Positions 9,459 to 36,914 of a DNA stretch of 64,000 nt are shown piece after piece (the stretch's first letter is position 1; every line of letters begins with the position of its first letter). The translations under genes and the position numbers were made by a program. Source of the stretch: a virus; IMG/VR virus record IMGVR_UViG_3300037237_000386, positions 12,919 to 76,918 of that record; one strand, written 5' to 3'. A model generated the notes under the pieces. The model was not told the origin of the DNA. It did not search any database and saw only the letters and a program-made list of their open reading frames with translations.

Positions 9459-10673
9459 ATGGCCAGGCACAAGATGAGGACGGCGGACGCGAGCTCACCC
9501 CTGAGGGAGAGCCCGCTCGCGGCGGTGGCGGCGCGCTTCAAGGACTTCCGTCCGGCGCGCGAGGTGATGAAGGTGGTGCGCGCGGTGCCGACGCGCTTCA
9601 TCCAGTTCGACCACGCGACGCGGGTGGGTGGACTGCCCGTCGACCGCATCTCGGTCGCGCACGGTCCGAGCAACGAGGGCAAGACGCTGCTCGCGCTCGG
9701 GCTCATCGACAGCTTCCTCGCGCTCGACCACTTCGGGCTGTTCGTGGACGCGGAGCGGACGACGCCGATCACGTGGGCGCGGGAGCTGATGGGCGAGCGG
9801 GCGGACTACCCGGGGTTCTTCGCCACCCGCCCCGACACGTACGAGGAGACGATCAAGCAGGTGCGGGCGTTCCTGAACCTGCTCATCGACATGAAGGCGA
9901 AGGGCAAGGTGCCCAAGGAGACGAGCGCGGTCGTCGTCGTGGACAGCCTGCGTAAGCTCGTGCCGGCGGACCTGATGGCGGAGATCCTGAAGGCGGCGAA
10001 GGAGGAGGCCGAGGAGCGGAAGAAGGGCAAGAAGGGCAAAGGCATCACGACGGGCCGGGACCGGCGCGCGCAGCTGCAGGCGAAGATGAACGCGGGGTGG
10101 ATGGACGAGCTCGTGCCGCACCTGGAGCACGCGGGAGCGGCGATGCTGCTCATCGCGCGCGAGATGCAGGACCCGGACGCGGACCCGATGGCTCGGAAGT
10201 TCGGCACGGACTACAAGGTCGGCGGCGGCGGAGCCATCATCTACGACAGCAGCCTGCGCCTGCGTGTTGAGCGCGCCGCGTGGGTCGTCGACAAGAAGGA
10301 AGAGGGCCGCAAGCCGGTCATCTTCGGGGAGCGGCACCGCGTCACCATCAAGAAGACGAAAGTGGGCGGAAAGGACGACAAGGCGAGCGTGGCCTACTTC
10401 CACTCGAGCAACGGCGTGCTGGTGCCGGCGGGGTTCGACCGCGCCAGGGACGTGCTGGAGCTCGCGGTGCGCTTCGGCGTGGTGCAGGCGGGCGGGGGGA
10501 GCTACCGCGTGGGGAGCACGCGCAGCGGCGTCCTCGGGCGCGGGGAGCACAACGTCGTGAAGCGGCTGACGGCGGAGCCGGCGACGCTGGCGAAGTTGGA
10601 GGCGGAGGTGCGCGAGCGGTTCAAGGACCAGACGCCGACGGAGTTCGACGAGATCACCGGAGAAGTCGAATGA
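9459..10673 (+). CDS. recA: RecA/UvsX-family recombinase
   Basis: GGLP..RI...HGPSNEGKT Walker A, FVDAE, VVVDSL Walker B, GGGAIIYDSSLRL. Confidence 0.92.
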   Translation: MARHKMRTADASSPLRESPLAAVAARFKDFRPAREVMKVVRAVPTRFIQFDHATRVGGLPVDRISVAHGPSNEGKTLLALGLIDSFLALDHFGLFVDAERTTPITWARELMGERADYPGFFATRPDTYEETIKQVRAFLNLLIDMKAKGKVPKETSAVVVVDSLRKLVPADLMAEILKAAKEEAEERKKGKKGKGITTGRDRRAQLQAKMNAGWMDELVPHLEHAGAAMLLIAREMQDPDADPMARKFGTDYKVGGGGAIIYDSSLRLRVERAAWVVDKKEEGRKPVIFGERHRVTIKKTKVGGKDDKASVAYFHSSNGVLVPAGFDRARDVLELAVRFGVVQAGGGSYRVGSTRSGVLGRGEHNVVKRLTAEPATLAKLEAEVRERFKDQTPTEFDEITGEVE

Positions 10674-11233
10674 GCGGGAGCATCCTCACGGACGTGGCAA
10701 TCAGCAGAGCGGTGGCGAATCAGGACATTGTCATCGACCCGTACAGAGCGTCGCATGTGAACCCGGCGAGCTACGATCTGACGTTGGGCGACCAGGTGCT
10801 CGTGTACGCGGCCGACTCATTGTCGGTGTACGACGTGAAGCAGGAGCCGACGAAGTTTCGGCACGCACTCATCGGCGATGAGGGGTTCGTCATCCACCCG
10901 GGCGTCGGCTACCTGATGCACACACATGAGAGGGTGCTCACGGAGTCGTACGTGCCGGTGCTCGACGGCAAGAGCAGCATCGGACGGCTGTTCATCAGCG
11001 TGCATTCGACGGCTGGTTATGGCGATCCGGGGTTCGATGGACAGTACACGCTGGAGGTGACGGCTCACCACTTCAGCGTGCGGCTCTACGCGGGCATGCG
11101 CATCGCGCAGATGCGGTTCCACACGATGGAGGGCAAGCTGGCCAAGACATACGAAGGGAACTACCGAGGAGCGACGGCGAAGGGTCCGGTGCCGAGCGCT
11201 GCGTGGCGACAGTTCGCGGAGAAGAAGCCGTGA
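10670..11233 (+). CDS. dcd: dCTP deaminase
   Basis: NPASYDLTL, GKSSIGRLFISVHSTAGYGDPGFDGQYTLEV, GMRIAQM. Confidence 0.93.
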   Translation: MSGSILTDVAISRAVANQDIVIDPYRASHVNPASYDLTLGDQVLVYAADSLSVYDVKQEPTKFRHALIGDEGFVIHPGVGYLMHTHERVLTESYVPVLDGKSSIGRLFISVHSTAGYGDPGFDGQYTLEVTAHHFSVRLYAGMRIAQMRFHTMEGKLAKTYEGNYRGATAKGPVPSAAWRQFAEKKP

Positions 11234-11991
11234 GAGCCCTGTTCACGGGGGACTGGCATAGCGACGCTTCCACCTACGGCGTGAGCCGGCACGACGACGT
11301 GGTGAAGGCGGTGAAGCAGACCGTCGAGGCGGCTGTCAGCCAGAAGGTGGATCTCTACTGTTTCGGGGGCGACCTCTGCGACCCGGACGATGCCATCGCG
11401 TGCCTGAGGGCGTTGAAGCTCGCGATGTGGGCGGCAGGAACGCTCGCGCGGGCGGGCATCCCACAGGTGTGGCAGGCGGGCAATCACGACGTCTTCGAGG
11501 ACGGGAGCGGAGACACGACGTTGACGCCGCTCTACTCGATGGCGAGCACGCTCGCGCAATGGATGTGGGTTGTGGAGATCCCGACGACGGTGCGCGTGAG
11601 GAACTGCTCGCCCGTCTACACACTTCCCTTCACGGCGAGCAGTCATCCCTACGATCCGGCGAAGGAGCTGCGGACGATGTGCACGGAGCAGGAGACGAAC
11701 AACGGTGCGCACGGCGAGGGCTTCGTCATGAGTCACCTGGCGTTCCCGGGCATCCAGCCGGGCGAGGAGACGACGGAGATGCCGAGGGGGCGGGAGGTGG
11801 TGTTCCCGGTCGACGAGCTCGCACGCCTCCGCCCGGACAGGCGGGACGACTGGCTCGTGGCGCAGTTCCACTACCATCGGCGGCAGACGCTCCGCCTCCC
11901 CTTCGCGACGGTGCTGGTGCCCGGGAGTGCGGCCCGGCTGGCGTTCGGGGAGGAAGACAACACGCCGGGCTTCCTGCTGGTGGACCTCTGA
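11230..11991 (+). CDS. Mre11/SbcD-like metallophosphoesterase nuclease
   Basis: GDWH, GGDLCD, GNHD, SHL, HYH, PGS...FGE motifs. Confidence 0.88.
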   Translation: MRALFTGDWHSDASTYGVSRHDDVVKAVKQTVEAAVSQKVDLYCFGGDLCDPDDAIACLRALKLAMWAAGTLARAGIPQVWQAGNHDVFEDGSGDTTLTPLYSMASTLAQWMWVVEIPTTVRVRNCSPVYTLPFTASSHPYDPAKELRTMCTEQETNNGAHGEGFVMSHLAFPGIQPGEETTEMPRGREVVFPVDELARLRPDRRDDWLVAQFHYHRRQTLRLPFATVLVPGSAARLAFGEEDNTPGFLLVDL

Positions 11992-12467: not shown

Positions 12468-12883
12468 CGACGGAGGAGGACTTCCTGACGTTGTCGCCTG
12501 AGTCGTTCGTTTCGATTGCGCGGGACATGGAGTGGCTGAGGACGAAGTCAGACGCGATGTGGAGGAAGGCGATGGAACCGGAAGTCGAGAAGTGGGACGC
12601 GATTCTCAAGAAGCTGATGGCCGTCGACACACTCGACTCTTCGCAGACGGTGCGTGTGGAGCCGCATTCGCTGGCGTTGCTCATCGCGGAGAACACGCGC
12701 CTGAGTGCCCAGGTGGACGAGCTGCAGACGCGGGGCACGGAGATGGCGGCGGAACGCCAGCGTTGGCGCGACCCGATGCGCATCGCGAAGATCGCGGCCA
12801 AGCTCACGACCAGTGCGGCACTCGGAGAGGACCCCGAGGACATCGCGGTCCGGGCGATGCGCGAGCTCGTCGAGGCGCCGTGA
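12464..12883 (+). CDS. hypothetical coiled-coil protein
   Basis: GTGA overlaps at both ends. Confidence 0.55.
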   Translation: MTTEEDFLTLSPESFVSIARDMEWLRTKSDAMWRKAMEPEVEKWDAILKKLMAVDTLDSSQTVRVEPHSLALLIAENTRLSAQVDELQTRGTEMAAERQRWRDPMRIAKIAAKLTTSAALGEDPEDIAVRAMRELVEAP

Positions 12884-14787
12884 GAATCGCGCGCCTGCAG
12901 CTGGAGAATTGGGAGCCGTTCAAGGGTACGCACGTCCTCGAGCTGCGGCCGCAGGCGTACGCCGTCTTTGCGAGGTACGAGGACGACCCGGACCGCTCGA
13001 ATTGGGCGGGCAAGAGCAGCCTGCTCGGAGCCGTTCGGTTTGCGCTCACCGGGGACCACGACCATCGGCTGGAGGACGAGTGGATCTCGAACGGTGAGGA
13101 GCGCGGCGCGGTGACGCTGGTGCTCGACGATGGGACGGTCATCGACCGGAGCCGGAAGCGCGGCAAGGCGACGCAGTTCGTCGTGGGCAAGGCGAAGGGC
13201 GACGACGCCCAGGCGCTGCTCTGGAAGGCGATGGGTCTCGCCAAGGAGGACTGGCTCGCCACGTGCTGGTGGGAGCAGGGGGCGACGTCGCGCCTCGTCA
13301 CGGCAGATCCCGCGGAGCGCACACGCATCGTCACCGGCTGGCTGGAGCTCGGACCGCTGCAGGCGGCCGAGGGGCACAACGCGCGGCGCCTGGGCGAGGT
13401 GGTGGCGAAGGTGGAGCGGCTCGAGATCGACGCGCGTGGCTGGGAGGCCGTCGAGGCGGAGCAGCTCGGCGGGCAGTCGGTGGACGTGCTGGCGAACGCG
13501 CTGACGACGGCGGAGGGGCAGCTGGAGAAGGCGCGGGCGGAGCGGCAGGTGGCACGCGCCCGGGTGGACGAGCAGGGCGCGGCGGCGGCCAGGCGGGAGA
13601 AGGCGGCGGAGTACGCGCGGCTCGTCGAGGACGGGGTGCGGCTCAAGGCGGAGCTGGCCGAGGAGGACAAGCCGGCGCTGGTGGCGGAGAGGGACAACGC
13701 GCGCGCGACGCATGACGCGGCGGTGGGTAAGCTGACGACGACGAGCCGCGAGGCGGAGCAGCGTCGGAAGGTGGCGCTCGGGGAGTTCGACGGCAAGTGC
13801 CCGGTGGCCGGCATCGCGTGCCCCGCGAAGGACGCGATCAACGCGGACGTGAAGACGAACCGGAAGCGGAGCCAGGCGGCCGACGCGGCGCGCGACCAGG
13901 CACGCGAAGAGGCGCTCGCGGCGACGAACACCTTGGACGCGGCGGAGGGGGAGCTGCAGGCACACGACCGCAAGGCGGAACGGCTGAAGCTACTGCGCGA
14001 CCAGGCGCTCAAGCTGCAGCCGGCGGCCGAGGCGAGTGCGTCGGACCCGGAGCCCGATCCGAAGGCGGGCGAGAAGCTCGCTGCGGCGGAGCGCAAGGAA
14101 CACGAGTGGGTGGAGCGCGTGGGCGCGCTGGGCGAGCGAGTCCGGCGGATCATGGACGCACGGCGCATGCGGGCCGAGGCGCTTGCGAAGATCGTGGTGC
14201 TCGACGGCGAGCTCGCGGCGCTGCGGGAGGCGGCGCTCGTCCTCGGCAAGAACGGGGCGCAGCGGGACGTCGCCCGGGGAGCGCTGGAGGACATCGAGCA
14301 GGGGGCGAACGAGCGCGTGCGTGCGGCGGGTGTGGATCTCGAGGTGAGGGTGCGCTGGGAGCACGAGAGCAAGATGCTGGCGAAGGCGTGCGGCGCGTGC
14401 GGCTGGCCGTTCCCGGAGAGCACGAAGGTCAAGGAGTGCCCGCGGTGCAAGGCGGAGCGGGGACCGCACTACGTCAACCGGCTGGAGTTCGAGAGGAGCC
14501 GTAAGAGCGGCGGTGCCGACGACATGATGGGAGTGGCCCTGCAGCTCGCCGGGAGCGCGTGGCTGCGGGACGCCCGAGGCAGCGCGTGGGCGACGGGGCT
14601 GCTCGACGAGCCGACGAGCCAGATGGACGCAGCGAACCGGCGGGCGCTCGCGCAGATGCTCCGGGCGGAGAAGGGCTTCGAGCAGCTGCTGGTGGTCAGC
14701 CACCATCACGGGACACTCGACGCGCTGCCCGGGCGAATCCTCATCACGAGTGACGGCACGTGGGCACGCGCCGAAGTGGCGGCATGA
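12880..14787 (+). CDS. Rad50/SbcC-like ABC ATPase
   Basis: SNWAGKSS Walker A, EQG Q-loop, coiled coil with central CPVAGIACP, KSGG signature, LLDEP Walker B, VVSH H-loop. Confidence 0.9.
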   Translation: MRIARLQLENWEPFKGTHVLELRPQAYAVFARYEDDPDRSNWAGKSSLLGAVRFALTGDHDHRLEDEWISNGEERGAVTLVLDDGTVIDRSRKRGKATQFVVGKAKGDDAQALLWKAMGLAKEDWLATCWWEQGATSRLVTADPAERTRIVTGWLELGPLQAAEGHNARRLGEVVAKVERLEIDARGWEAVEAEQLGGQSVDVLANALTTAEGQLEKARAERQVARARVDEQGAAAARREKAAEYARLVEDGVRLKAELAEEDKPALVAERDNARATHDAAVGKLTTTSREAEQRRKVALGEFDGKCPVAGIACPAKDAINADVKTNRKRSQAADAARDQAREEALAATNTLDAAEGELQAHDRKAERLKLLRDQALKLQPAAEASASDPEPDPKAGEKLAAAERKEHEWVERVGALGERVRRIMDARRMRAEALAKIVVLDGELAALREAALVLGKNGAQRDVARGALEDIEQGANERVRAAGVDLEVRVRWEHESKMLAKACGACGWPFPESTKVKECPRCKAERGPHYVNRLEFERSRKSGGADDMMGVALQLAGSAWLRDARGSAWATGLLDEPTSQMDAANRRALAQMLRAEKGFEQLLVVSHHHGTLDALPGRILITSDGTWARAEVAA

Positions 14788-15137
14788 TGGGGACCATGAG
14801 CGGCAAGACGAACGGCACGACGGGACCGGCGACTCACAAGCCCGTGGAGGAAACCCGGGTTTCCCTCAAGACGGTGCGCTACCGGGTGGAGGGCAAGCGT
14901 GTCTTCGTCATCTACGCGGCGGACGCGAGCGAGGCCCTCGACAAGATCAACGAGGCCTGCGCCTCGGGGACGAAGGTCGTGCATGGGTTCGACGAGGTGG
15001 CCCTGGCGACGTTCGCGCCGTTCCACGTCCTCGGGTCGGAGGGAGGGATCACGGACGAGGGTGAGCTCAGCTTCGGGCTCGGGGGCGAGGCGATGCTCTG
15101 CGCGGACAATGCGCCCGCGCGCGAGACGCGAAAGTGA
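14784..15137 (+). CDS. hypothetical protein
   Basis: ATGA overlap; contains ETRVS. Confidence 0.55.
   Translation: MMGTMSGKTNGTTGPATHKPVEETRVSLKTVRYRVEGKRVFVIYAADASEALDKINEACASGTKVVHGFDEVALATFAPFHVLGSEGGITDEGELSFGLGGEAMLCADNAPARETRK
14849..14864. repeat. 16-bp palindrome copy 3
   Basis: Read directly. Confidence 0.97.
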
Positions 15138-15658
15138 ACGGCCGGCGCAAGGGCTCGCGCGCGGAGCTGGAAGTCGCGGGCATCATCAGCGAGTGGTGGA
15201 AGCGGCTGGAGATGACGGCGCGCTTCGTCCGCATGCCGCTCTCTGGTGGGTGGGGTGAGCGCGGGGCGCGCGAGGGCTTCAAGGCGAGCGGGGACCTCGG
15301 CACGACGGCGGAGAGGTTTCCCTTCACCGTCGAGGTGAAGAGGCGCGAGGGTTGGAACCGGGAGCGCTTTTTCGCAGGCAAGGCGAGCCCCGTGTGGGCG
15401 TGGTGGAGGCAGGCGCAGTCGCAAGCCGTCGAGGCGAATGCAGAGCCGATGCTCTGGCTGCGGCACAACGGCGACAAGGAGTGGGTCGTGGTCGTGCGCG
15501 AGGAGTACGCCAACAAGATCCGCCTCAAGCCCGAGTGGCACAACAAGTGGGACGCGTGGCCCGCCAGAAGCGGGTGGAAGCCGTTCGCGTTCGGGCACCT
15601 GCTCCTCGTCGGCTTGGACCCGGCGCAGTTCGCGCTGGAAGCTGCTACGAAGGGGTGA
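15134..15658 (+). CDS. Holliday junction resolvase, PD-(D/E)xK (Hjc-like)
   Basis: RRKGSRAELEVA...GDL...VEVKRRE. Confidence 0.8.
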   Translation: MNGRRKGSRAELEVAGIISEWWKRLEMTARFVRMPLSGGWGERGAREGFKASGDLGTTAERFPFTVEVKRREGWNRERFFAGKASPVWAWWRQAQSQAVEANAEPMLWLRHNGDKEWVVVVREEYANKIRLKPEWHNKWDAWPARSGWKPFAFGHLLLVGLDPAQFALEAATKG

Positions 15659-15673: not shown

Positions 15674-16369
15674 GTGAGGAAGAAGGCGAAGAGGGCCCCG
15701 GCGCAGAAGCCGGCGGGCAAGGCGGCGCCGAGTGTTGTCGGCAAGGTGGAGATGGCGGCGCTCGACCTCGTGCGCCCGAACACCTGGAACCCGAACCGGC
15801 TGACGCCCTTCGAGAAGCGAGCGCTCAAGCACGGGCTCGAGCACGACACGTGGCTGCCGAGCCACGCGCTCACGATCTGGAGGACCGACGAGAAGGGCAA
15901 GAAGAAGATGCTCGTCATCGACGGCGAGCACCGCTGGACCGCCGCCCGGGAGCTCGGCCTGAAGGAGGGACCGATGGTGTTCCTCGACGGGCTGACCGAG
16001 GCCGAGGCGAAGGCCTGGACCGTGAAGCTCGACGCGAAGCGGGGCAAGTTCGACGAGGACAAGATGGGCCCCCTCCTCCGGAGCCTGGAGCCGACGATGG
16101 ACGTGGAGACGCGAGCGCTCGACCTCGGCATCGACGAGGACCGCCTCGTGCGGTACCTCGACGACGAGCCGGACAAGGCCGTGGTCGGCGAGCTGCCGAG
16201 CGGGCAGCGGGCGAGCGTGCGGCAGGTGCAGCTCTTCTTCCCGCAGGCGCGCTACGACGAGTTCCAGAAGATGGTGCGGGAGATGGCGGGGAGCCTGAAG
16301 ACGAAGAACGTGACCGACACGGTGCTGGAGGTGGTCCGCCGTGCGGGCGCAGCTGCAGCTCCGAAGTAG
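15674..16369 (+). CDS. ParB/Srx N-terminal-domain protein, paralogue A
   Basis: VRPNTWNPNRL...LVIDGEHRWTAARELG (GxxR patch); C-terminal strand-helix-helix. Confidence 0.85.
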   Translation: MRKKAKRAPAQKPAGKAAPSVVGKVEMAALDLVRPNTWNPNRLTPFEKRALKHGLEHDTWLPSHALTIWRTDEKGKKKMLVIDGEHRWTAARELGLKEGPMVFLDGLTEAEAKAWTVKLDAKRGKFDEDKMGPLLRSLEPTMDVETRALDLGIDEDRLVRYLDDEPDKAVVGELPSGQRASVRQVQLFFPQARYDEFQKMVREMAGSLKTKNVTDTVLEVVRRAGAAAAPK

Positions 16370-16391
16370 CCACCCGGACGCCCACGTGAGG

Positions 16392-17260
16392 ATGCTCGTG
16401 GGCAAGAGGGGTGTGGCCGAGGACGCGCCGGTGCTGCTTGCGGGCGACGCCAGCGCGTTCAAGCCGAACGGCGAGCGCCTCCTGACGCTCGTGCGCGGGG
16501 CCATCGATCGGAGGGTGATCGACGCGGCGTGGCCCTTCATGTGGGGGCTGCGAAAGCACGTCAGCACGAACCGGGGAGCCTACGGCGGGGACGACGCGCT
16601 CGACGACGGGCGCGCGAAGGTGAAGTCGGGCGGGGTGCGGTACAGGGCCGTCAAGCAGGATGGGACCGTGAGCAAGACGAACCACGCGAACCCGGTGCGG
16701 AGCGTGGTCGCGGGGGCGTTCGACCGCAGCCCGCGCATCCCCTTTTGCCGGCAGACGGCGTACAGCACGGACGAGCCGGAGAAGTGGGGCGCGGCGCTGC
16801 CCTTCGTGCAGGCGGTGGGGGAGCTGTTCCGCGACGTCGTACCGGACCGGGCTGCGGCGCAGCGCGAGCAGGCGGAGAAGACGCACCCGGCGTACGTGAT
16901 CCCGGGCACACCCTTCACGACCATCACCGTGAACAACACGGTCGCCGGCACGTACACACGGACAAGGGGGACTTTCACCAGGGGTTCGGTGTGATGGCGG
17001 TCATGCGCCGGGGTCACTACCGCGGGGCAGAGCTCGTGTTCCCGAAGTACGGCGTGGGTGCGGACCTGCAGCACGGCGACGTCATCTTCTTCGATCCGCA
17101 CGAGGTGCACGGCAACCTGGCGTTCCGTGAGGGCATCGGCGTGGAGGCGGAAGATTGGGCTCGGATCTCGATGGTCATGTACTTCAGGACGCGCATGGTC
17201 GATTGCCTGGAGCCGAGGGCGGAGTTGGAGCGCGCCAAGGGCGTGCGAGGAGAGGTGTGA
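16392..17260 (+). pseudogene. TET/JBP-family 2OG-Fe(II) dioxygenase split by a -1 frameshift near 16955 (pseudogene, recoding or sequence error)
   Basis: Frame 1 gives PFCRQTAY...GTPFTTITVNN..GTY; frame 2 continues HTDKGD (HxD), GAELVFP, GDVIFFDPHEVHGN (distal His), RISMVMYFR (2OG Arg). Confidence 0.8.
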
Positions 17261-17907
17261 TGGGCAAGCGGAAGAAGCCGACGGTGAGTGCGGTGGTCAA
17301 CTCGCCGCTGACGGGCGTGAAGCCGAATCCGTGGAATCCGAACCGACTGACGGCGTTCGAGAAGGAGAGCCTGAAGTTCGGCATCCGTGAGGACGGGTGG
17401 CTCGCCAGCCACGCGCTCACCATCTGGCGCACGGACGAGAAGGGCAGAGAGAGGAACCTGGTCATCGACGGCGAGCACCGGCTGGTGGCGGCGCTGGAGC
17501 TCGGGATGACGGTCGGCCCGATGTGCTTCATCGACGGGATGAAGGAGAGCGACGCGAAGAAGCTCACCATCAAGCTCGACGCGAAGCGCGGCAAGTTCGA
17601 CCAGGAGCTCCTGCAGACGCTCGTCAGGAGCATCGCGGATGGCCTCGACCTGGAGACGAGGAGCCTGGCCCTCGGCATCGGTGAGGACGTGCTCGGGGAG
17701 ATGCTCGACACGACGCCGGATACACCCGTCGTCGGGGAGCTCGGCAGTGGCAGGACGAGCGACACGAAGGTGGTCACGTTGTTCTTCACGCCCGAGGGAC
17801 ATGACGAGTTCCTGAAGGTGGCCAAGGAGCTGGCGGTGCGCTTCAAGCAGCAGACGACGAGCGACACGGTGTTCGAGGCGGTGCGAAGGGCGAACGCCGC
17901 AAGATAG
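17260..17907 (+). CDS. ParB/Srx N-terminal-domain protein, paralogue B
   Basis: KPNPWNPNRL...VIDGEHRLVAALELG...KLDAKRGKFD; aligns by eye with 15674..16369 over its full length. Confidence 0.85.
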   Translation: MGKRKKPTVSAVVNSPLTGVKPNPWNPNRLTAFEKESLKFGIREDGWLASHALTIWRTDEKGRERNLVIDGEHRLVAALELGMTVGPMCFIDGMKESDAKKLTIKLDAKRGKFDQELLQTLVRSIADGLDLETRSLALGIGEDVLGEMLDTTPDTPVVGELGSGRTSDTKVVTLFFTPEGHDEFLKVAKELAVRFKQQTTSDTVFEAVRRANAAR

Positions 17908-17912
17908 TCGCC

Positions 17913-18863
17913 ATGCGCGTGACGTACCGGAGGATGAGCGGGGCCGTCGGGCTGACGGACATGGAGCGCGGCAGCCGCGGGATGTGGCTGGAGAAGAGGC
18001 GCGCGCTCCTCGCCGAGCTCGCGCGCCGGGGGCACGGGGTGAGCATCGTCAACCGGATGACGAAGTTCAGCATGCCCCCCGAGATCCCGCCGTGGGACCC
18101 GAAGCGGTGCGACCTCTTGATGATCGAGTTCGGCAGCTCGAACGCGAAGTTCTATGGCGAGGATCTCGACGGCACGAGCAGGATGATCGACTCGCACGAG
18201 GGGAACATCGTGTTCCTCTGCGACGACCCGGACCTCCCCTACACGTGGAAGACGGTGACGAAGAAGATCGGGCGCTGGGTCGTGTGGATGAACGCGACGC
18301 GGGGCGAGGCGTTCGGCGGGCAGCCGGCGGGGATGGTCGTCCGGGATGCGCCGTTCGCGGCGCTGCTGCCCAAGCCGCTGACGCCCATCCCGCTCGACCG
18401 CATGGAGCCTGCCGTCTACATCGGCAGGCCCAAGGGGCGCGAGAAGGCGCTGCGGGGCATCTTCGAGGCGGGTGTGGAGCTCGAGGTGTGCGGGCGCGCG
18501 AAGGAGTGGGAGGGGTTCGACGTGCGGGTCATCGACGCGCCGGACCAGGGCGCGCGCGGGGCCTTCTATCGGAGGCGGCTGGCGAGCGTCGTCGTCGCGG
18601 ACCGGAAGCACAAGCGCATGGGCTGGAGGACGGGGCGCGCGTACCACGCGCTTTACGCGGGGACGCCGGCCGTCGTCGAGGCGGACCACGAGGCGCTGGC
18701 GGAGACGTTCACTGTGTTCCACGAGCCGGGGGATCTGCGAGACACGCTCACCGCGTGGAAGACGGACCCGCGGTTGCGCGCGAAGGCGTGGGACGCGCAG
18801 ATGAATGCCCAGGTGCGGGACAGAGTGACCATGGACGAGACGCTGCGGGCGTCGGGCTTGTGA
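17913..18863 (+). CDS. GT-B glycosyltransferase resembling T4 DNA beta-glucosyltransferase
   Basis: FLCDDPDLPY (cf. BGT YLFTDIRLPF), AVYIGRPKGR, VVVADRKH...RTGRAYHAL (cf. LIIGDKNY...TLRVWETM); next to TET/JBP. Confidence 0.65.
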   Translation: MRVTYRRMSGAVGLTDMERGSRGMWLEKRRALLAELARRGHGVSIVNRMTKFSMPPEIPPWDPKRCDLLMIEFGSSNAKFYGEDLDGTSRMIDSHEGNIVFLCDDPDLPYTWKTVTKKIGRWVVWMNATRGEAFGGQPAGMVVRDAPFAALLPKPLTPIPLDRMEPAVYIGRPKGREKALRGIFEAGVELEVCGRAKEWEGFDVRVIDAPDQGARGAFYRRRLASVVVADRKHKRMGWRTGRAYHALYAGTPAVVEADHEALAETFTVFHEPGDLRDTLTAWKTDPRLRAKAWDAQMNAQVRDRVTMDETLRASGL

Positions 18864-19309
18864 CGGTCGCGTACGACCTCGACGGCGTGCTGGCGGAAGC
18901 GCCGCCCGAGGGCAGCAAGGCGTGGCGCAGGATGAAGGGACCGGAGCGCGCGGAGAGGCGCGCCTTCCTCGGGCGCTGGTACCTGACGGCGAAGGGCCTC
19001 CACAAGCCGACGGAGCACGGGTTCCACGTCGTCACGGCGCGCTCGACGTGGGCCAGGGAGACGACGCTCGACTGGCTGGCGGCGCGCTACGGCGACCGGA
19101 TGCTGGGCCTGCACATGCTCAAGGGAGGCAGGACCATCGAGCGCGTCGTCGCGTTCAAGGCGGGCGTGCTGCGGGAGCTCGGGGCGACGGACTACTCGGA
19201 GGACAACAGGACCGTCGTCGTGGCGCTGCGTAAGGCGGTACCCGAGTGCCGCATCTGGCACTACAAGGGCGGTCGCATGAACCTCGACTACCCGGAGGCA
19301 CCGCTTTGA
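18860..19309 (+). CDS. HAD-superfamily phosphatase
   Basis: YDLDGVL motif I, VTAR motif II, FKA motif III, YSEDN motif IV. Confidence 0.8.
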   Translation: MTVAYDLDGVLAEAPPEGSKAWRRMKGPERAERRAFLGRWYLTAKGLHKPTEHGFHVVTARSTWARETTLDWLAARYGDRMLGLHMLKGGRTIERVVAFKAGVLRELGATDYSEDNRTVVVALRKAVPECRIWHYKGGRMNLDYPEAPL

Positions 19310-19665
19310 CGCCGGTGCTGCGGTTCCTCAAGCGTCAGGTGGAGCACTACTTGGGATCGTTCTACGAGGGCCCGGAGCCTCCGCGCCGGTTGCGGAGGAT
19401 GGTGCTCCTCTTCGCGAACGCGCATCCCAAGGCGACGCGGAGGGAGTGGGCAGAGTTCGCCGCGGCGCACGCTGCCGAGGCGTACCAGAGCGGGTACACG
19501 CGGGGGTGGGAGCGGAGCGAGCGAGACGCGGACGCGATGCCGTGGCTCGTGCAGGAGCCGGAGATCGTCGCGGACGCGCTTGACCCTGGGTGGAGGGACG
19601 GGCCGAACGCGCTGCTGGTGAACGCGGAGGACGTGGTGGTGAGCGCTGCATCACGGGAGGCATGA
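19306..19665 (+). CDS. hypothetical protein
   Basis: TTGA and ATGA overlaps with its neighbours. Confidence 0.5.
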   Translation: MTPVLRFLKRQVEHYLGSFYEGPEPPRRLRRMVLLFANAHPKATRREWAEFAAAHAAEAYQSGYTRGWERSERDADAMPWLVQEPEIVADALDPGWRDGPNALLVNAEDVVVSAASREA

Positions 19666-20480
19666 GCGACCAGACGGCAGGAGCAACGGACGCGCCCATC
19701 TATCTCCTCGACCACGGCTACCTGCGGCTCGTGGAAACTTGGGGCAACGACGAGCGCATCGTCGAGGCGGCGCGCATGAGCACGGGCAAGGGCTTCCTCG
19801 GGTGGGGCGTCGAGGAGACGTGCGACAAGTGCCGGGGGAGCGGTACGAATGAGCCGGAGAACGGACCGGGCTCGCTCTGCAAGCAGTGCTCGGGGAGGAC
19901 GCGCTGGGTGAACAAGCCCGGCGACGAGAAGCTGCTGAAGTACCTCTACGACAACCGGCACATGACGCCGTTCGAGATGGCGGGTGCGACCTTCGAGGTG
20001 CAGGCGCCGATCTTCGTGTTCCGCGAGTGGCACCGGCATCGGACGCAGAGCTACAACGAGGCGAGCGCGCGCTACATGCCGCTGCCGGACGTGAACTACG
20101 TGCCGACGGTGGAGCGGTTGATGATCGGGGGCGGGCACCTGACGGCGCAGGCGGGCGCGGTGAAGGGAGCGGCCGAGTTCACGAGGGAGAGCGCGGAGAC
20201 GTTCCAAACGCTCCTTCGCACGCAGTACAACGAGGCGCAGGGGCTCTATCAACTGGCGCTCGACAACGGTGTACCCAAGGAGCTCGCGCGGCTCTGCCTG
20301 CCGGTGGGGCGGTACAGCCGGATGCGCGCGAGCGCGAACCTGCGCAACTGGATGCAGTTCCTGACGCTGCGGGACGACCCGCACGCACAGTACGAGATCC
20401 GGGTGTACGCCGCGGCGGTGCGCGACGTGTTGGCGACGAGCTTCCCGAGGACGATGCGCATCTTCAAGGGAGGCACGTGA
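19662..20480 (+). CDS. thyX: FAD-dependent thymidylate synthase
   Basis: HMTPFE, APIFVFREWHRHRTQSYNEASARY, ELARLCLP, NLRNWMQFLTLR, HAQYEIR. Confidence 0.95.
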   Translation: MSDQTAGATDAPIYLLDHGYLRLVETWGNDERIVEAARMSTGKGFLGWGVEETCDKCRGSGTNEPENGPGSLCKQCSGRTRWVNKPGDEKLLKYLYDNRHMTPFEMAGATFEVQAPIFVFREWHRHRTQSYNEASARYMPLPDVNYVPTVERLMIGGGHLTAQAGAVKGAAEFTRESAETFQTLLRTQYNEAQGLYQLALDNGVPKELARLCLPVGRYSRMRASANLRNWMQFLTLRDDPHAQYEIRVYAAAVRDVLATSFPRTMRIFKGGT

Positions 20481-22663
20481 TGCCGAATCCCGACCAGGTG
20501 CAGCTCAAGGTCAACGAGGCGCGCGGCGGCGTGAAGCGGCTGAAGGAAGCAGTCGCCACGCGGGCGCAGGTGCAGCGTGTGCAGGACGGGGACGACGAGC
20601 TCACGCTGCTCGGGCAGATTGCGTTGCACCTGGCGGAAGCCATCGAGGCGCTCGCCGGGGAGCTGCAGGGACACCGGGACAGGCACGCGGCTGGAAGGGG
20701 ACGATGATGAACGACCGAGCGGCGTGGAGCGTGAGCGAGCTGGCGGAGAGAGGTGGCTACGTCATCCACGAGGAGACGGGGACCGTCGGCCGGGCGAAGC
20801 GGATGTGGTCGGGGGACGACGGCGACGCGTGGGTGAGCCCCGTCAACGGGCAGTCCGTGAAGGCGCCGGTGCTCGAGCTGCAGACGGGCGACGCCTTCGT
20901 GCTGAAGGACGCGGACACCTTCACACCGCTGACGGCGAAGGAGGTGGAGGTGTTCGAGGGGTTGCAGCAGATGGTGACGCACGCCACGACTATCGCGGGG
21001 AGCCTCGCCGCGGCCTCTGGCGTGCCCCTGGAGCAGTTTGCGCGCCTGGGGGCGGCAGTGCTCCGGGCGCAGCAGCTGGCGCTGGAGAGGGCCGTCCTCG
21101 GGGTGGTAATGGCCCAACTGGACGTGCCACTGTCCCCCGAGGCCGAGGCGGCGCTGCAGGCGGGCATGGAGAGCGCGAGGCGGGGCGAGGTGGCACCGCT
21201 CGTGCTGCCGGAGGCGAAATGAGCCAGGACCAGGGACCGAGCCTCACGCGTAGCGCGGCGCACAACGCGGCGGCTGCGCTGGTGACGATGTACGCGGGAG
21301 CAATCGCGGACGCGGAGCGGGAGATCGCGCAACTGCGGGCGATGGTGGAGCGGACCTCGACGCTGCTCGGGCAGACGGTGAAGCAGCGGGACGAGGCGCA
21401 GGAACGGGCCTCCGACGCAGCCGCGACGACGCAGCGTTGGAAGGACGACTACGCACGCGAGGCGCAGGCGTACGCCGCCGTCTACTCGGTCGTCGAGGAG
21501 GTGAGGGAGGCGATGCCGCGGCTGCGTGAAGCGGGGTTCACGAGGCTCGTCGAGATGTGGGACGCGGCGAGCAAGCCGTATCCGAAGCCTGGGGAAACCC
21601 GGGTTTCCCCCGAACCCGAGCACGTGGCAGGCTGACGTCCATGGCGACGATGAGACACGGACGGGCAACGGGGCTGGCGGCGCTGCTGTCGGTGGTGAGC
21701 ACGCAGCCGGTCGTGCGCAACGACAACGAGCCCGGGCCCTCGAAGCCGGACCCCGACGGTGGACCCACGATCCTGAAGCAGGTGGACGTGACGCGGGGCA
21801 CGGCGGAGTTCATGAACCGCTATCGGAAGCACCTGCACCGGTACGGGTGCGTCGAGTTCGAGGTGCCGCGAGGCATCACGTTGCCGCCTTGGATGCACGT
21901 CGTCCTCGACACGCTGCGCATGCGCGAGCGGAACTGGCGCGTGGTCACACTCGTTGGCAAGAAGGGCGCGACGCTCCACCGGGTCGTGTGGAAGCACTGG
22001 TGCAAGCAGCTGCGCACCCGGGGCTTGCCCTTACGGGTCGTGCACGGTGCCTGAGGAGCCCAAGCTCGGGCAGCGGCACGAGTGGAGCCCCCCTTGGGCG
22101 CTCCACGTCGAGGGCTGGTACCACGACAGGCTGCCGCCCGAGGAGCCGGGACTGCCGCCCGAGGCAGCGCCGTGGGGGGCGACCTGTACGACGTGCGGCG
22201 AGACGATTCAGCGCACGTGCGCGAGCGGCATGATGCGGGGGTGGATTCAGTCGTTTGCGCGGGCGCACCTGCACCGTAGCCCGCTCGACGAGGCACCGAG
22301 GAAGGACCCGAACACGTGATGCGACTGATGGAGTTGGGATTCTTGGGGATGTGCGCGACGATGGCGCTGACGCTCGTCTTCGAGGGGGGCGTCGCGAGTG
22401 GCAAGCACGCGCAGCAGGACCCGGTGGACGACGCGCTGCTTGGGGACCTGAAGGCGTGCACGGCGAGCCTGAACGAGACGGTGGCGACGCTGCGGCGGCG
22501 CAACGACGAGGACCCGCAGATCACGTACTCGCTGCAGCACATGGCCGGCGAGATCGACCGATGCAACTCGAGGTTGCAGTGCTGCACGGCGTTCAACGTC
22601 ACGTGTGTGGAGCGGGGGTTCACGTACCAGTCGCTGCAGCAGCTGCAGGCGGGGCAACCGTGA
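20480..22663 (+). CDS. run of small coupled hypothetical genes (20480-20707, 20704-21222, 21219-21635, 21641-22054, 22047-22319, 22316-22663)
   Basis: Consecutive ORFs with overlapping or adjacent stop/start codons and typical codon usage; no recognisable motifs. Confidence 0.5.
21593..21608. repeat. 16-bp palindrome copy 4 (extends to 20 bp)
   Basis: Read directly; ETRVS near the C-terminus of 21219..21635. Confidence 0.97.
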
Positions 22664-23300: not shown

Positions 23301-23878
23301 ACCCCCTCGACAGAGCGACCGCGCTCGCGCCCAACGCGAAGGAGCTGGCGGTCCTCCGCATCTTCGTCTCGACCGACGAGACACGTCCCAACCTGGCCAC
23401 GCTGTACGCCTACGAGAGCGACGGCGGCACCACCTACGTCGCGACCGACGGGCACACCATCGTCGTGCGCCGGGCAGGCACGCACCGCACGATGGCACTG
23501 CACGACGTGTTCAAGCTCGCCACGCTGGCGGTCGGCGACGATGGCACGGCGAAGCCCACGGACAGGTTTCCGCCCAAGTGGGAGCAGGTGCTGCGCGCGG
23601 GCGCGACGGGCGGAGCGCTCGCGAAGGCGTACAGCATCTCGCCGCTCTACATGATGCGGTTGGCGGACGTGGAGAAGGCAGCAGGGCAACGCGCCGCGGA
23701 TGACTACGTTCCGCCCGCCGGGCTGTCGAAGAAGGACGCGGCGGCGATGCGAGCGAACCTGAAGGGCAGCGCGCTGACGTTGCTGACCATCCCGAGCGAC
23801 CCGCTCGACGGATGGTTCTGGAAGGCGGAGACCACGGCGGCGCTTTGGGAAGGTGTCGTCATGCCGAGGAGGATCTGA
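23297..23878 (+). CDS. truncated DNA polymerase III beta-clamp-like protein (central domain)
   Basis: FVSTDETRPNL...YVATDGHTIV...FPPKWEQVL resembles DnaN D.TRP.L / VATDGHRL / FPDY..V. Confidence 0.6.
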   Translation: MNPLDRATALAPNAKELAVLRIFVSTDETRPNLATLYAYESDGGTTYVATDGHTIVVRRAGTHRTMALHDVFKLATLAVGDDGTAKPTDRFPPKWEQVLRAGATGGALAKAYSISPLYMMRLADVEKAAGQRAADDYVPPAGLSKKDAAAMRANLKGSALTLLTIPSDPLDGWFWKAETTAALWEGVVMPRRI

Positions 23879-26644
23879 TGAACCGCATCAAGATCGCGCA
23901 GGCGGTGAACGACGCAGGAGCTTCGGTTGGCCGGGGCTTCCCGAAGTTGGTGGAGGGTTCCTCGCGCGAGACGCTCATCGCGTGGCTCGCGCACAACGAC
24001 CCGTCCGGCATCTACACGGACGAGGACCTGCGGGCGGAGGGCGAGGAGCCCATGACGCTCGACGAGGCGTGGAAGCAGGTGGCCGAGGGTTGCGACTACA
24101 GCGAGGCGCCTCCCGAGCCGAAGAGGGCGCTGGCCTGGGCGCGGTTCACGAAGGGCGATTGGGCGGGGTTCTCGGGCGCGGAGAAGTTCCCGAACGGCGA
24201 CGAGCCGCTCAGCGCGGAGCTGAGCGTGGACGGACGCCCGGCTGTTGCCGTGTGCGACCTGACGGGGCTCGGGCTCTACGTCGAGGGTGAGGACAGCCGC
24301 GAGGGCCAGGACGGCGACGCGTACTGGTCGTTCTTCGCGGAGTACCGCACGGGCGAGCAGAAGCTGCAGTACGCGCTGAACGCGATGTTCGCGCTCGCGT
24401 CGGTGATGACGAGCGACGAGCTGCGCAAGCTCGGGTTCACGAAGGACGGAGAGAGGTGAGCGCCATGACGACGGGCATCTCGGAAGCACGGTTGCGGGAG
24501 CTACTCATCAGGAGGCCGAAGGCCATGGACGACGACGGGAAGATCACGCTGGAGCCGGAGGAACGCGCGCTCCTCGCGGACGTGCACAACGCAGGCGCGC
24601 GCGAGTTCGAGGTGGTGAAGGAGAAGGGCAAGAGCACCGCACGCTTCGACGCTGCGCACACTCTGGAGAAGCGGGGCCTCATCACGTGGGTTCGCTGCGC
24701 CGGGTCCGCGGGCCGGGACGTGGCGATGCTGCGGGTCAGCTACCGGCTCACGCCGCAGGGCGCGGAAGTCGCCCGGACGGTCGGTGCGTCGTGAGCTGCC
24801 CGGGCTGCGGGAAGGACTTCCGCAAGGGGACGACGGTGACGCTGCAGGACCCCGCGGTGGGCCCAGGAGGGCGCAGGGCACGCGTTTGCGGCGAGTGCCT
24901 CGCCCGGGCCCTCGTCGTCGTGGCGCCGCGCCTGGCGCCCGTCCTGAAGCAGGTGACGGGCAAGGAGGACAACGAGGTAGTCATCCGACAGCTGCGGGTG
25001 CTCGCGAAGGCGGCGGAAGGCGGCGGAGAAGGACGCGAGGCCGGACGTGCACAACGCGCTCTACCATCAGGGCAGGGCGGAGGGCTTCGAGGGAGCCATC
25101 GAGCTGCTGAAGGGGCGCAAGTGATTCACGAGCAGGTGGAGTACTCCGTGGAGGACCCCCACGGGCAGGAGCGCATCTTCAAGGACCCGAAGGAGGCGCA
25201 GTTGTTCGTGCCGAAGGGCACCACCGGGACCGTCAGCGACAGCTGCAAGGACGGGGTGCTCGTGAAGGTCGATGGCAGGGTGCCGGGCCTGACCGACTCA
25301 GACGAGTGGGAGGGCGAGTTTCAGTGGCTCGATGCCCACGTCGAGGCTGGCGAGCCCGAGTGCCGCGAGGACCGCCAGCCAGCGATTCTCGCCCGCGCTC
25401 TGGCCGCGAGGGCGACGTGACCGAGGCGCACTGGACGAAGATGGCGATCAAGGTGCTCTGCAACCAGCTCGACTCGTGGTGGATCACGAACCGGCCGCTC
25501 GACTTCCGGAAGCTCGCCGAGCTGACCGAGAAGGCGCACGAGATGCTCGCGAATCCGAGCCACCGCAAGGAGATCGTGCTCGCAGGCATCCGCTCGTCAC
25601 GCGCCAGACACGCGAAGCGCTACAGCGAGTGCTGCGAGACCATCGGCAACCAGCTGGTCCGGTTCACCGAGTACGGGCAGCCCGACGAGCTCATCGAGCG
25701 CTTCACGAGGCTGGCGCGCGAAGAGGACAAGGCGGACAAGACGCTCGAGAAGCTGCTTCACCGCGTGCTCGACGAGGGTCTGCCGCCAGAAGTCGAGGCG
25801 TACGACCCGACCACACCGAAGGGATGACGAGGATGCCGACGCTGGTGCTTGGACGAGACGGGATGGGACCGAACAGCGAGGAGGCCGACTTCAAGGCCTT
25901 CGTCAGCTACGCGCTCGACCAGGCGATGAGCCGCGGCGAGGCGACGCTGGACGTTCTCATCTGGGACGAGGCCGGGGCGCTCACGTACGGGGGAGACGAC
26001 GCGGTGGAGCGCTACAGCGAGGACCCGGAGGCGAGCGTGTTCGAGCGGTTCGAGATCAAGGTCAACTGCGCAGGGAGGGTGCCGTGAAGGTCAGCCTGCA
26101 CCTGACGGACGGGGGAGCGCACGTGGCGAAGGTGCCATTCAACGGGGCGGCGCACGTAGTCGTGCTCATCGCTTGCCCGGCTTGCAGCGCGGCGGCGCCC
26201 ATCCTCGTCGCGATCTCGAGCCACGACCACGACACCTATTACGCGGACGCGCGTGCTCAACGGTCGCGCCCGGGTCTACTGATGAAGACGTACGGGACCG
26301 TGAACGTGATGCGGCTGACGCAGAGGGCGCGGAGCAGGAAGCCTGACGTGTACGAGATGGTGCCGGCGCTCGCGCTCACCCCGACGGACAAGCCGTTGGT
26401 GGTGACGGAGCTGGAGCCCTTCACGGGCGAGGACCCGACGCCCGAGTACACGGTGACGCACGTGCCCACGGGGCAGGCCATCGGGCACTACAAGAACGCG
26501 AAGAAGGCGAAGGCAGCGCTCGAGGACTTGGTGCCGTTGACCGACTGGACGCGGTCGAAGGCGGAGATCAGCGCGGACGTCGCGCTCGGGGCGATGGTGC
26601 GGGCGGTGAAGAAGAAGCACGGAGACACGAAGGACGAGCGATGA
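23878..26644 (+). CDS. run of small hypothetical early-type genes (23878-24459, 24456-24794, 24791-25420, 25417-25827, 25824-26087, 26084-26644)
   Basis: Coupled ORFs; several look chimeric. Confidence 0.45.
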
Positions 26645-26706: not shown

Positions 26707-26895
26707 GTGATGAAGTTTTACGTGTACGAGCTGCGTGATGACGCCGGGAAGCCGTTCTACGTCGGTAAGGGTTCCGGCAAGAGAATCGCCGCTCATCAGC
26801 GCCGAGCCCGAAAGGGTGACACGACACACCGGGCGAACAAGATTCGGAGCATTTGGCGCAAGATATCTGAGACGAAGCGGGGGGTGCGGTCGTGA
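26707..26895 (+). pseudogene. GIY-YIG endonuclease N-terminal fragment
   Basis: FYVYELRD...PFYVGKGSGKRIAAH; only 62 aa; more AT-rich than its flanks. Confidence 0.65.
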
Positions 26896-36035: not shown

Positions 36036-36914
36036 ATGAGCAAGCGGACGACCGAGTTTCTACCACCCGTCACCTACCAAGGCGGCAAGGGCCGCCTAGC
36101 AGCGCAGATCGTCGAGACGATGGGGCTCCCCATCGCCGGTCGATTCTATGACCTCTGTTGCGGCTCGGGCGCCATCTCAGTTGCCGCAGTCGAGCGGGGC
36201 CAAGACCCGAGCCGCATCACAATGGTCGACCTCTCGCCATGGGGTCTCTTCTGGAAGTCGATTGGCGACGGGTCCTTTGACGTTTCTCAATTCGAGTTGC
36301 ATGCAGCGCGAGTGCCACGCGACCCCTGGAAGATAAAAGAATACGTAGAAGCCCTTTCGCGAGAGCGCGTGGGCGACGATCGCGTCTATGTGTTCCTGAT
36401 CTTGCAGGCTGCACGGTTTGGCGGCGCGGCGATCTGGATTGACGGAGAGAAGTGGTGTGGCGGCGGCTTCCGTCAATACTGGACATCGGCGTCGTCGAAA
36501 AAGGAACCGACACGCGGTCGAGAGAACCCCAATTCAACACCGCCCATGTGCCCCATGCCCGACGTCATCGTAGCGCGGTGCCGATCGCTCGCTCAGAGGA
36601 TGCGAGGGGTACGAGCCATCTGCGACGACCTTGGCAGACCGGGATTCGACCTGCGTCTAGTCGTTGGGGACGGAGATGTTGCTTACATCGATCCCCCCTA
36701 CGCAGGGACGTCGAAATATGGCTACGAAGTTGACGCCTCAAAACTGGCCTCGTCGCTCGGCGTGCCGTGTTGGGTTTCTGAGGGACGCGGACTTACACCT
36801 GGCGCCATCTGTCTCTCGCGTGGACGCATGAAGGGCGGCATGTCCGGCACCCGAACACGCGCTCCGAACGAAGAATGGATCAGTCCGTTCGGAACCGAAA
36901 AAGTGCGGACATGA
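36036..36914 (+). CDS. Dam-like (D12 class) DNA adenine methyltransferase
   Basis: YQGGKGRLA, FYDLCCGSGAIS, YIDPPY; atypical codon usage. Confidence 0.82.
   Translation: MSKRTTEFLPPVTYQGGKGRLAAQIVETMGLPIAGRFYDLCCGSGAISVAAVERGQDPSRITMVDLSPWGLFWKSIGDGSFDVSQFELHAARVPRDPWKIKEYVEALSRERVGDDRVYVFLILQAARFGGAAIWIDGEKWCGGGFRQYWTSASSKKEPTRGRENPNSTPPMCPMPDVIVARCRSLAQRMRGVRAICDDLGRPGFDLRLVVGDGDVAYIDPPYAGTSKYGYEVDASKLASSLGVPCWVSEGRGLTPGAICLSRGRMKGGMSGTRTRAPNEEWISPFGTEKVRT

Follow-up and report, generated by a model that had tools for sequence, protein, structure and literature searches.

The DNA analysed here, referred to as the window, is a stretch of 64,000 nucleotides that covers bases 12919-76918 of the 76.9-kb IMG/VR virus record IMGVR_UViG_3300037237_000386 and contains a gene cassette for a predicted DNA base modification pathway. 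The record is linear, with an estimated completeness of 83%, and carries almost all of its genes on the plus strand; since its GC content is high (68%), genes were called by third-position GC. The window sequence is found in many metagenome runs from peat and permafrost. The cassette encodes, in this order and all on the plus strand, a ParB-like protein (ParB1), a TET/JBP (5mYOX) dioxygenase, a second ParB-like protein (ParB2), a GT-B glycosyltransferase (GT) and a capless HAD phosphatase, after which comes ThyX. The TET stop codon and the ParB2 start codon overlap in ATGA, as do the GT stop codon and the HAD start codon in GTGA.

The dioxygenase gene is split over two reading frames. Its 5' part (16392..16955) lies in frame 2 and extends to the Tyr codon at 16953-16955, and its 3' part (16955..17260) lies in frame 1. 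The Pfam family Tet_JBP (PF12851) matches both halves: the frame 2 open reading frame (ORF; 16341-16994) covers profile positions 10-85 with an E-value of 2.5e-4 (20.8 bits), and the frame 1 ORF (16529-17260) covers positions 87-163 with an E-value of 3e-11 (43.3 bits, the curated cut-off being 34.9). The assignment of the 5' part is also based on a match to phrog_24024 (E 3e-26) and on a frame plot of GC at third codon positions (GC3). The iron- and 2-oxoglutarate (2OG)-binding motifs are all found in frame 1, with HTD at 16955-16963, followed by the distal His in EVHGN and the 2OG-binding Arg in RISMVMYFR, and they align with those of relatives. Downstream of this Tyr codon, frame 2 is out of register and reaches a stop codon at 16992-16994. 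The reading frame is thus broken at 16953-16957, and the gene does not form a single uninterrupted frame.

At the site of the break one C is missing directly before the histidine codon of the HxD motif: the window reads TACAC (16953..16957, plus strand) where its close relative L081 reads TAC-CAC. In L081, the encoded protein reads ...NNTVAGTY HTD KGD... (TAC CAC ACG GAC) in a single frame, and the TET genes from 54 further loci are also each in a single frame. With regard to the distance between L081 and the window, the amino acid identity is 86-93% for TET (86% for the 3' part), 78% for ParB2 and 69% for the GT. This 1.6-kb locus was the only one yielded by the metagenome scan for relatives; the scan of genome contigs yielded only two contigs of metagenome-assembled genomes, and no relatives were obtained with the TET 5' half as query. 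The contigs of four other peat runs (X2-X5), from other samples and studies, span positions 16940-16960 without gaps and with 0 to 1 substitutions relative to the window. Since the same deletion is present in four independent runs, it is a property of the phage population and not an assembly error. No second TET copy is present in the 76.9-kb record, which has only one TET locus, and inspection of positions 16940-16960 by eye revealed no slippery heptamer (X XXY YYZ), no homopolymer run and no rescuing internal start. The ratio of nonsynonymous to synonymous substitution rates (dN/dS) relative to L081 is 0.13 for the TET 3' part and 0.28 for both ParB2 and the GT. The low value for the TET 3' part implies that the break is young compared with the split between the window and L081 phages, or that it is somehow tolerated. 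Most likely, the oxidase has recently been inactivated by a genuine one-nucleotide deletion, which turns the pathway off at its first step, and production of the modified base has probably ceased in the window phage.

The two ParB-like proteins, which are 54% identical, flank the dioxygenase on both sides. ParB1 (231 aa; 15674..16369) contains an N-terminal ParB/Srx nucleotide-binding domain, with matches to PHROG ParB-like families (E 3e-15) and a weak match to Pfam ParB_N, and ParB2 (215 aa; 17260..17907) matches PHROG ParB-like families with an E-value of 1.2e-14. Residues 8-103 of ParB2 align to the nucleotide-binding domain of Spo0J (Spo0J residues 19-108), with GEHR in place of GERR. No helix-turn-helix family was matched by either protein in the Pfam and PHROG searches. 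The distribution of these partners was examined in the IMG/VR loci retrieved with the GT alignment as query: 108 loci were found to encode a relative of the GT, and the best 80 of the 108 were analysed. ParB is present in 20 of these 80 loci, two of which have two ParBs. In a quick maximum-likelihood tree made with IQ-TREE, in which the window branch is long and its composition atypical, the ParB-linked TETs, that of the window included, all fall to the same side of a branch supported at 97%. Furthermore, 17 residues follow the last conserved Cys in the window TET, compared to 1 to 37 in the ParB-linked relatives and 66 to 89 in the ParB-less ones.

The ParB-less TETs linked to GT-HAD (L002:8610-9923, L067:8583-9911 and about 40 other loci) are about 435 aa long. 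They present a conserved C-terminal extension of 66-89 residues (LGSxEYE...RRxNxxHP..LWNGVS..MW..EWY), their N-terminus is longer by about 100 residues, and they directly follow PolB-RecA-DnaB replication genes in low-GC phages. These additional N- and C-terminal regions may replace the function of ParB. A variant gene order, ParB > GT > HAD > TET, is observed in L020, L030, L056, L074 and L075, where the TET stops 1-3 residues beyond the C-terminal position that is conserved and makes up a separate clade on a long branch.

The GT (316 aa; 17913..18863) matches no Pfam family at an E-value of 0.01 or better and no PHROG family, and its 60 homologues are all unannotated. An AlphaFold2 (AF2) model, built from an alignment of 43 sequences, has a mean predicted confidence (pLDDT) of 95.6. 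In a Foldseek search with this model, the six best matches were all T4 beta-glucosyltransferase (BGT), the best one with an E-value of 2.7e-11 and a TM score of 0.71. The comparison with BGT by VIA gave a Z-score of 23.9, with 299-304 of the 316 residues aligned and a root-mean-square deviation (rmsd) of 3.3, whereas T4 alpha-glucosyltransferase (AGT) scored 19.5 and the remaining GT-B enzymes 18.4 or less. An invariant D104-D105-P106-D107 stretch follows the strand at 98-103 and may be a candidate for the equivalent of the catalytic D100 of BGT. The sequence identity to the T4 glucosyltransferases is 12-14%, a profile search of the PDB sequences did not recover BGT or anything else meaningful, and tblastn against cultured phages returned no homologues. 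Judging from the model, the 316-aa protein belongs with the BGT-like DNA glycosyltransferases in its fold but not in its sequence family.

The HAD protein (149 aa; 18860..19309) begins with VAYDLDGVLAE, which contains the DLDGV motif. The residues of motifs I-IV are conserved across 35 sequences: D6, D8, K100, E114 and D115 do not vary, and S59 hardly does. The AF2 model (pLDDT 92.6) has no cap domain, and an all-against-all structural search with it was headed by T4 Pnkp (Z 12.1), Pnkp1 (11.9) and T4 PNK (11.3), the next HAD scoring 10.1. Polynucleotide 3'-phosphatase domains are also ranked first by Foldseek (E 1.2e-4), and neighbours of the protein in the ESM Atlas carry HAD_PNKP (PF25109). 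Pfam scans of the 35 family members gave no significant families, HAD_PNKP included, and a profile search of the PDB sequences gave nothing meaningful. A capless Pnkp-like HAD suggests a polymer-borne phosphate as substrate, be it at the end of a DNA strand or on an adduct. No nucleotidyltransferase or kinase was found alongside the module in the window. The initial annotation, made from the letters of the window, had described HxD...H...R dioxygenase motifs, a GT-B enzyme resembling T4 BGT and a HAD phosphatase in one coupled run, followed by ThyX and with a dCTP deaminase nearby. This description holds up throughout: the three dioxygenase motifs are found, BGT is the best structural match of the GT, all four HAD motifs are conserved, and the run is coupled by the two stop/start overlaps. 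ThyX and the dCTP deaminase lie at 19590-20480 and 10682-11128, respectively. The two ParB-like genes on either side of the TET and the break in the TET frame come in addition to what was described there.

The association of these genes extends well beyond the window. Clustering of the neighbouring genes in the 80 loci placed a TET in 75 of them and a HAD in 73, and the adjacency of GT and HAD is kept even where the TET is on the other side. A TET or a ThyA-like enzyme predicted to make a hydroxymethylpyrimidine accompanies the module in 78 of the 80 loci. The GC content spans 29-65% in the 12 loci in which it was measured. A megablast search of the cassette against cultured phages gave no matches.

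With regard to the base that is modified, the search for C5-methyltransferases (PF00145) in the whole 76.9-kb record gave no match, in line with the initial annotation, which had seen none in the window and had classed both of the window methyltransferases as amino-type. The latter also stands: one is a 648-aa protein in which DUF3560 is fused to an NPPF domain (MTS/N6_Mtase; 26892-28838), and the other is represented by a DPPY (Dam-like) motif near position 36690, where the GC content is lower. Among the virus records of 40 relatives, only one encodes a C5-methyltransferase, and the complete TET-bearing genomes G005 and G025, which have terminal repeats and measure 145 and 160 kb, encode none. 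The sole C5-methyltransferase (2107-2760, E 2e-41) belongs to G001, the record of L001, a complete genome of 38.6 kb in which it lies about 30 kb from the ParB-TET-GT-HAD cassette.

A second line of evidence comes from GT-HAD loci devoid of TET. Three such records, one of them a complete genome, encode a divergent ThyA-superfamily protein of 356-423 aa 1-2 kb downstream of the GT-HAD pair (L083:1087-2358; L085:1132-2202, on the minus strand; and L084), and the 76.9-kb record has no ThyA homologue. The best solved relative of the ThyA-like protein is the CMP hydroxymethylase MilA (E 4e-18), but the two proteins that were checked have an Asn where MilA has an Asp, at the position of Asn177 of thymidylate synthase. 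In the ThyA family, an Asn at this position is the uracil-type residue. On the basis of its sequence, the ThyA-like protein is probably a dUMP hydroxymethylase that would feed the same GT-HAD module before replication. Since C5-methyltransferases are almost entirely lacking and the ThyA-like partner is of the Asn type, 5-hydroxymethyluracil (5hmU) would, most simply, be the acceptor of the sugar.

Oxidation of thymine by phage enzymes of this family has been described in recent years. In 2021, Burke et al. reported thymine oxidation by the phage enzyme TET89, which affected about 10% of the T in E. coli DNA (PMC8256090). A preprint from 2023 reported that BGT-like GT-B enzymes are associated with 5mYOX and remarked that most 5mYOX contigs have no methyltransferase, and thus probably synthesise 5hmU (bioRxiv 2023.12.21.572611). 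More recently, O'Toole et al. (bioRxiv 2025; PNAS 2026) have defined two subclasses of phage T-dioxygenases, one of which requires a short ParB homologue, and phage 5mYOX without a neighbouring C5-methyltransferase behaved as T-dioxygenases in their assays (PMC13229309). In the same study, the domains that co-occur in 5mYOX pathways included GTs (31%), ParBs (27%) and HADs, C5-methyltransferases being found in only 6% (PMC13229309). The initial annotation had started from the premise that characterised phage TETs act on 5-methylcytosine (5mC) together with a linked methyltransferase, which is outdated in view of the activity of TET89 (2021) and of the T-dioxygenase class (2025-26). As the T-dioxygenase pathway has already been published, the idea put forward in that annotation is not new. 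Its proposal that the cassette makes glycosylated 5hmU remains the best reading of the family, given the missing C5-methyltransferase, the Asn-type ThyA-like partner and the published T-dioxygenases; it probably does not extend to the window phage itself, whose oxidase is broken. The role in protection from restriction or CRISPR that the annotation also proposed is conjectural. In the literature covered by the search, no report was found of a phage GT acting on 5hmU made by a 5mYOX.

Taken together, we favour, with moderate confidence, the interpretation that the window contains a ParB-associated thymine dioxygenase cassette joined to a two-gene GT-HAD tailoring module, the oxidase of which has been broken by a recent mutation. 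In the intact relatives, the TET/JBP enzyme and its ParB-like partner or partners would hydroxylate T in the phage DNA to 5hmU after replication, and the BGT-like GT-B enzyme would then flip the base out and transfer a sugar onto its hydroxymethyl group; the product would resemble base J. The HAD would act with the GT, either by removing a phosphate from DNA or from the sugar attached to it, or by trimming a sugar phosphate during donor synthesis, while ThyX and the dCTP deaminase may feed dTMP. In the window phage, the dioxygenase is broken directly before the HxD histidine, and both ParBs, the GT and the HAD are intact.

Several points weigh against this interpretation. The low dN/dS of the TET 3' part also fits a gene that is expressed through some form of recoding, and contigs hide minority alleles, such that an intact allele could coexist with the deleted one. 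The C-terminal extension that is said to mark ParB-dependent enzymes is short in the window TET (17 residues). Furthermore, the missing part of the record, which is 83% complete, could hold a C5-methyltransferase, or 5mC could be supplied by a host Dcm; the preference for T or 5mC is unreadable from sequence, and the published phage T-dioxygenases also oxidise 5mC in vitro (PMC13229309). Finally, the role assigned to the HAD is a guess. A competing reading, drawn by analogy, would give the window HAD a role in donor synthesis, as for the GmhB-like HAD that trims a sugar bisphosphate in the synthesis of the donor in phage arabinosyl-cytosine pathways (PMC13326640).

A bolder version of the pathway, which we regard as rather unlikely, is that the invariant GT-HAD pair is a two-step synthase and phosphatase: the GT would attach a phosphorylated sugar to 5hmU, and the HAD, being of a type suited to polymer substrates, would then trim the phosphate on the DNA, the window phage being a natural mutant of the first step. 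If this were true, the intact relatives would carry a sugar or phospho-sugar derivative of thymine that has not yet been seen chemically, and only the tailoring enzymes would survive in the window phage.

As for the alternatives to the favoured interpretation, the cassette might still be functional, the dioxygenase being supplied by a minority intact allele or by unusual -1 recoding at the site of the deletion, in which case the phage DNA would contain glycosylated 5hmU. This would agree with the open frame of the TET 3' part, which has a GC3 of 0.88 and the lowest dN/dS in the cassette, with the retention of all family-invariant residues in the GT, the HAD and both ParBs, and with the occurrence of the deletion-bearing lineage in runs released from 2018 to 2025. 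However, neither the heptamer nor the homopolymer that recoding might use is seen at 16940-16960, no frame 1 start codon lies near the HxD motif, the four independent assemblies show the deleted form only, and the low dN/dS is accounted for just as well by a recent mutation, which makes a working oxidase in this phage unlikely.

It is also improbable that the dioxygenase family acts on 5mC supplied by a Dcm-type enzyme of the host or by a methyltransferase encoded in the unsequenced 17% of the genome, with the GT producing glycosyl-5-hydroxymethylcytosine (glycosyl-5hmC) like the published clusters of C5-methyltransferase, TET and GT. The absence of C5-methyltransferases from 39 of the 40 records of relatives, the two complete TET-bearing genomes among them, argues against it, as do the use of an Asn-type (uracil-type) ThyA homologue by the TET-less relatives and the published accounts of 5hmU as the product of clusters that lack a methyltransferase (PMC13229309; bioRxiv 2023.12.21.572611). 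In its favour, in vitro oxidation of T and 5mC alike has been published for the phage enzymes, one relative (G001) does encode a C5-methyltransferase, though about 30 kb away from the cassette, and the closest solved GT, T4 BGT, acts on 5hmC.

The possibility that the GT and the HAD act off DNA, for instance on a small molecule or a glycan of the host surface, and are simply neighbours of the TET, appears very unlikely. GT-B folds are common, many GT-B/HAD pairs make sugar phosphates, and sucrose-phosphate synthase is among the weaker structural matches of the GT; nevertheless, the top two matches, BGT and AGT, are the two DNA glucosyltransferases with solved structures and exceed all other GT-B enzymes by 4 to 5 Z units and by 1 Z unit, respectively, the module is tied to an enzyme making a hydroxymethylpyrimidine in 78 of the 80 loci, and the HAD is nearest to polynucleotide phosphatases. 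Least plausible of all is an assembly or sequencing artefact in an intact gene: errors that shorten a CC dinucleotide are common, but the contigs of four runs from other samples and studies are ungapped at the site, with 0 to 1 substitutions.

Among the characterised systems, the ParB-dependent 5mYOX176/ParB176 type (PMC13229309) resembles the window in having a TET/JBP-fold enzyme of about 290 aa beside a short ParB-like protein that has a nucleotide-binding domain but no detected helix-turn-helix, within a hypermodification gene cluster that has no neighbouring C5-methyltransferase. The window differs from it in the two paralogous ParBs that flank the oxidase, in the short C-terminal extension and in the frameshift, and it encodes a BGT-like GT and a HAD instead of kinases, GATases and amino-acid:DNA transferases. 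The ParB-independent T-dioxygenases 5mYOX89/97 of clade C2 share with the window a T-dioxygenase and GT neighbourhood devoid of a C5-methyltransferase, whereas the window TET groups with the ParB-linked relatives and the ParB-less relatives are about 435 aa long, with additional terminal regions. The clusters of C5-methyltransferase, TET and GT-B described in phages (subclass III; bioRxiv 2023.12.21.572611) also combine a 5mYOX with a BGT-like GT-B enzyme, and sometimes with HAD-type enzymes, but they carry a C5-methyltransferase and modify cytosine. Moreover, the HAD of subclass III is part of a kinase fusion that acts alongside a cytidylyltransferase to make the donor, in contrast to the small, stand-alone, Pnkp-like and GT-coupled HAD of the window.

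The pathway predicted here is similar to that of base J in kinetoplastids (JBP1/2 and JGT), in which a TET/JBP enzyme hydroxylates T after replication and the resulting 5hmU is glycosylated. Unlike the GT-A-like JGT, the GT of the window is a BGT-like GT-B enzyme; the window has no J-binding domain, its ParBs and HAD are additions, and its product is predicted only. In T4, whose beta- and alpha-glucosyltransferases are the best whole-chain structural matches of the window GT, 5hmC is made before replication by gp42, whereas in the window the acceptor, probably 5hmU, would be made on DNA by the TET. The 3'-phosphatase domain of T4 Pnkp has the same capless HAD core and DxD nucleophile motif as the window HAD (117 residues aligned, rmsd 2.8), which differs in being a stand-alone protein without a kinase domain, with 18% identity and no match to Pfam HAD_PNKP.

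The phage T-dioxygenases and their ParB activators have been described only between 2021 and 2026. The module defined by the present analysis is compact and widespread: it combines a TET with a Pnkp-like HAD and a BGT-like GT, ParB being optional, and it is present in more than 100 viral contigs of 29-68% GC. A uracil-type ThyA homologue can stand in for the TET. This module is a clear candidate for the bacteriophage counterpart of base J. As the first enzyme is broken in a natural population, the presence of the cassette alone does not predict modified DNA.

The surroundings of the cassette include further genes of DNA metabolism. The dCTP deaminase gene (10682..11128 of the window, 23600-24046 of the record; plus strand) matches PF22769 with an E-value of 2.8e-40. 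Upstream of the cassette there are also a RecA-like gene (9459-10673), a calcineurin-like phosphoesterase gene (SbcD-like; 11203-11991) and a gene for an SbcC/Rad50-like ATPase (12532-14787); the cassette therefore sits in a replication and recombination module. A perfect 16-bp palindrome, GGAAACCCGGGTTTCC, is found at 14849-14864, just upstream of the cassette, and the directly adjacent upstream neighbour, on the plus strand, encodes a phage PDDEXK endonuclease (15134..15658; Pfam PF24608, E 1.1e-22). Downstream, small ORFs at about 19321-19665 and at 20704-21222 have no homologues in the related loci and no family matches. The ThyX flavin-dependent thymidylate synthase (19590..20480, plus strand; Pfam Thy1, E 2e-42) presents a CXXC-type zinc-ribbon-like insert at residues 74-118, which matches Anti-TRAP and the CXXCXGXG motif of DnaJ, in both cases below the curated cut-offs.

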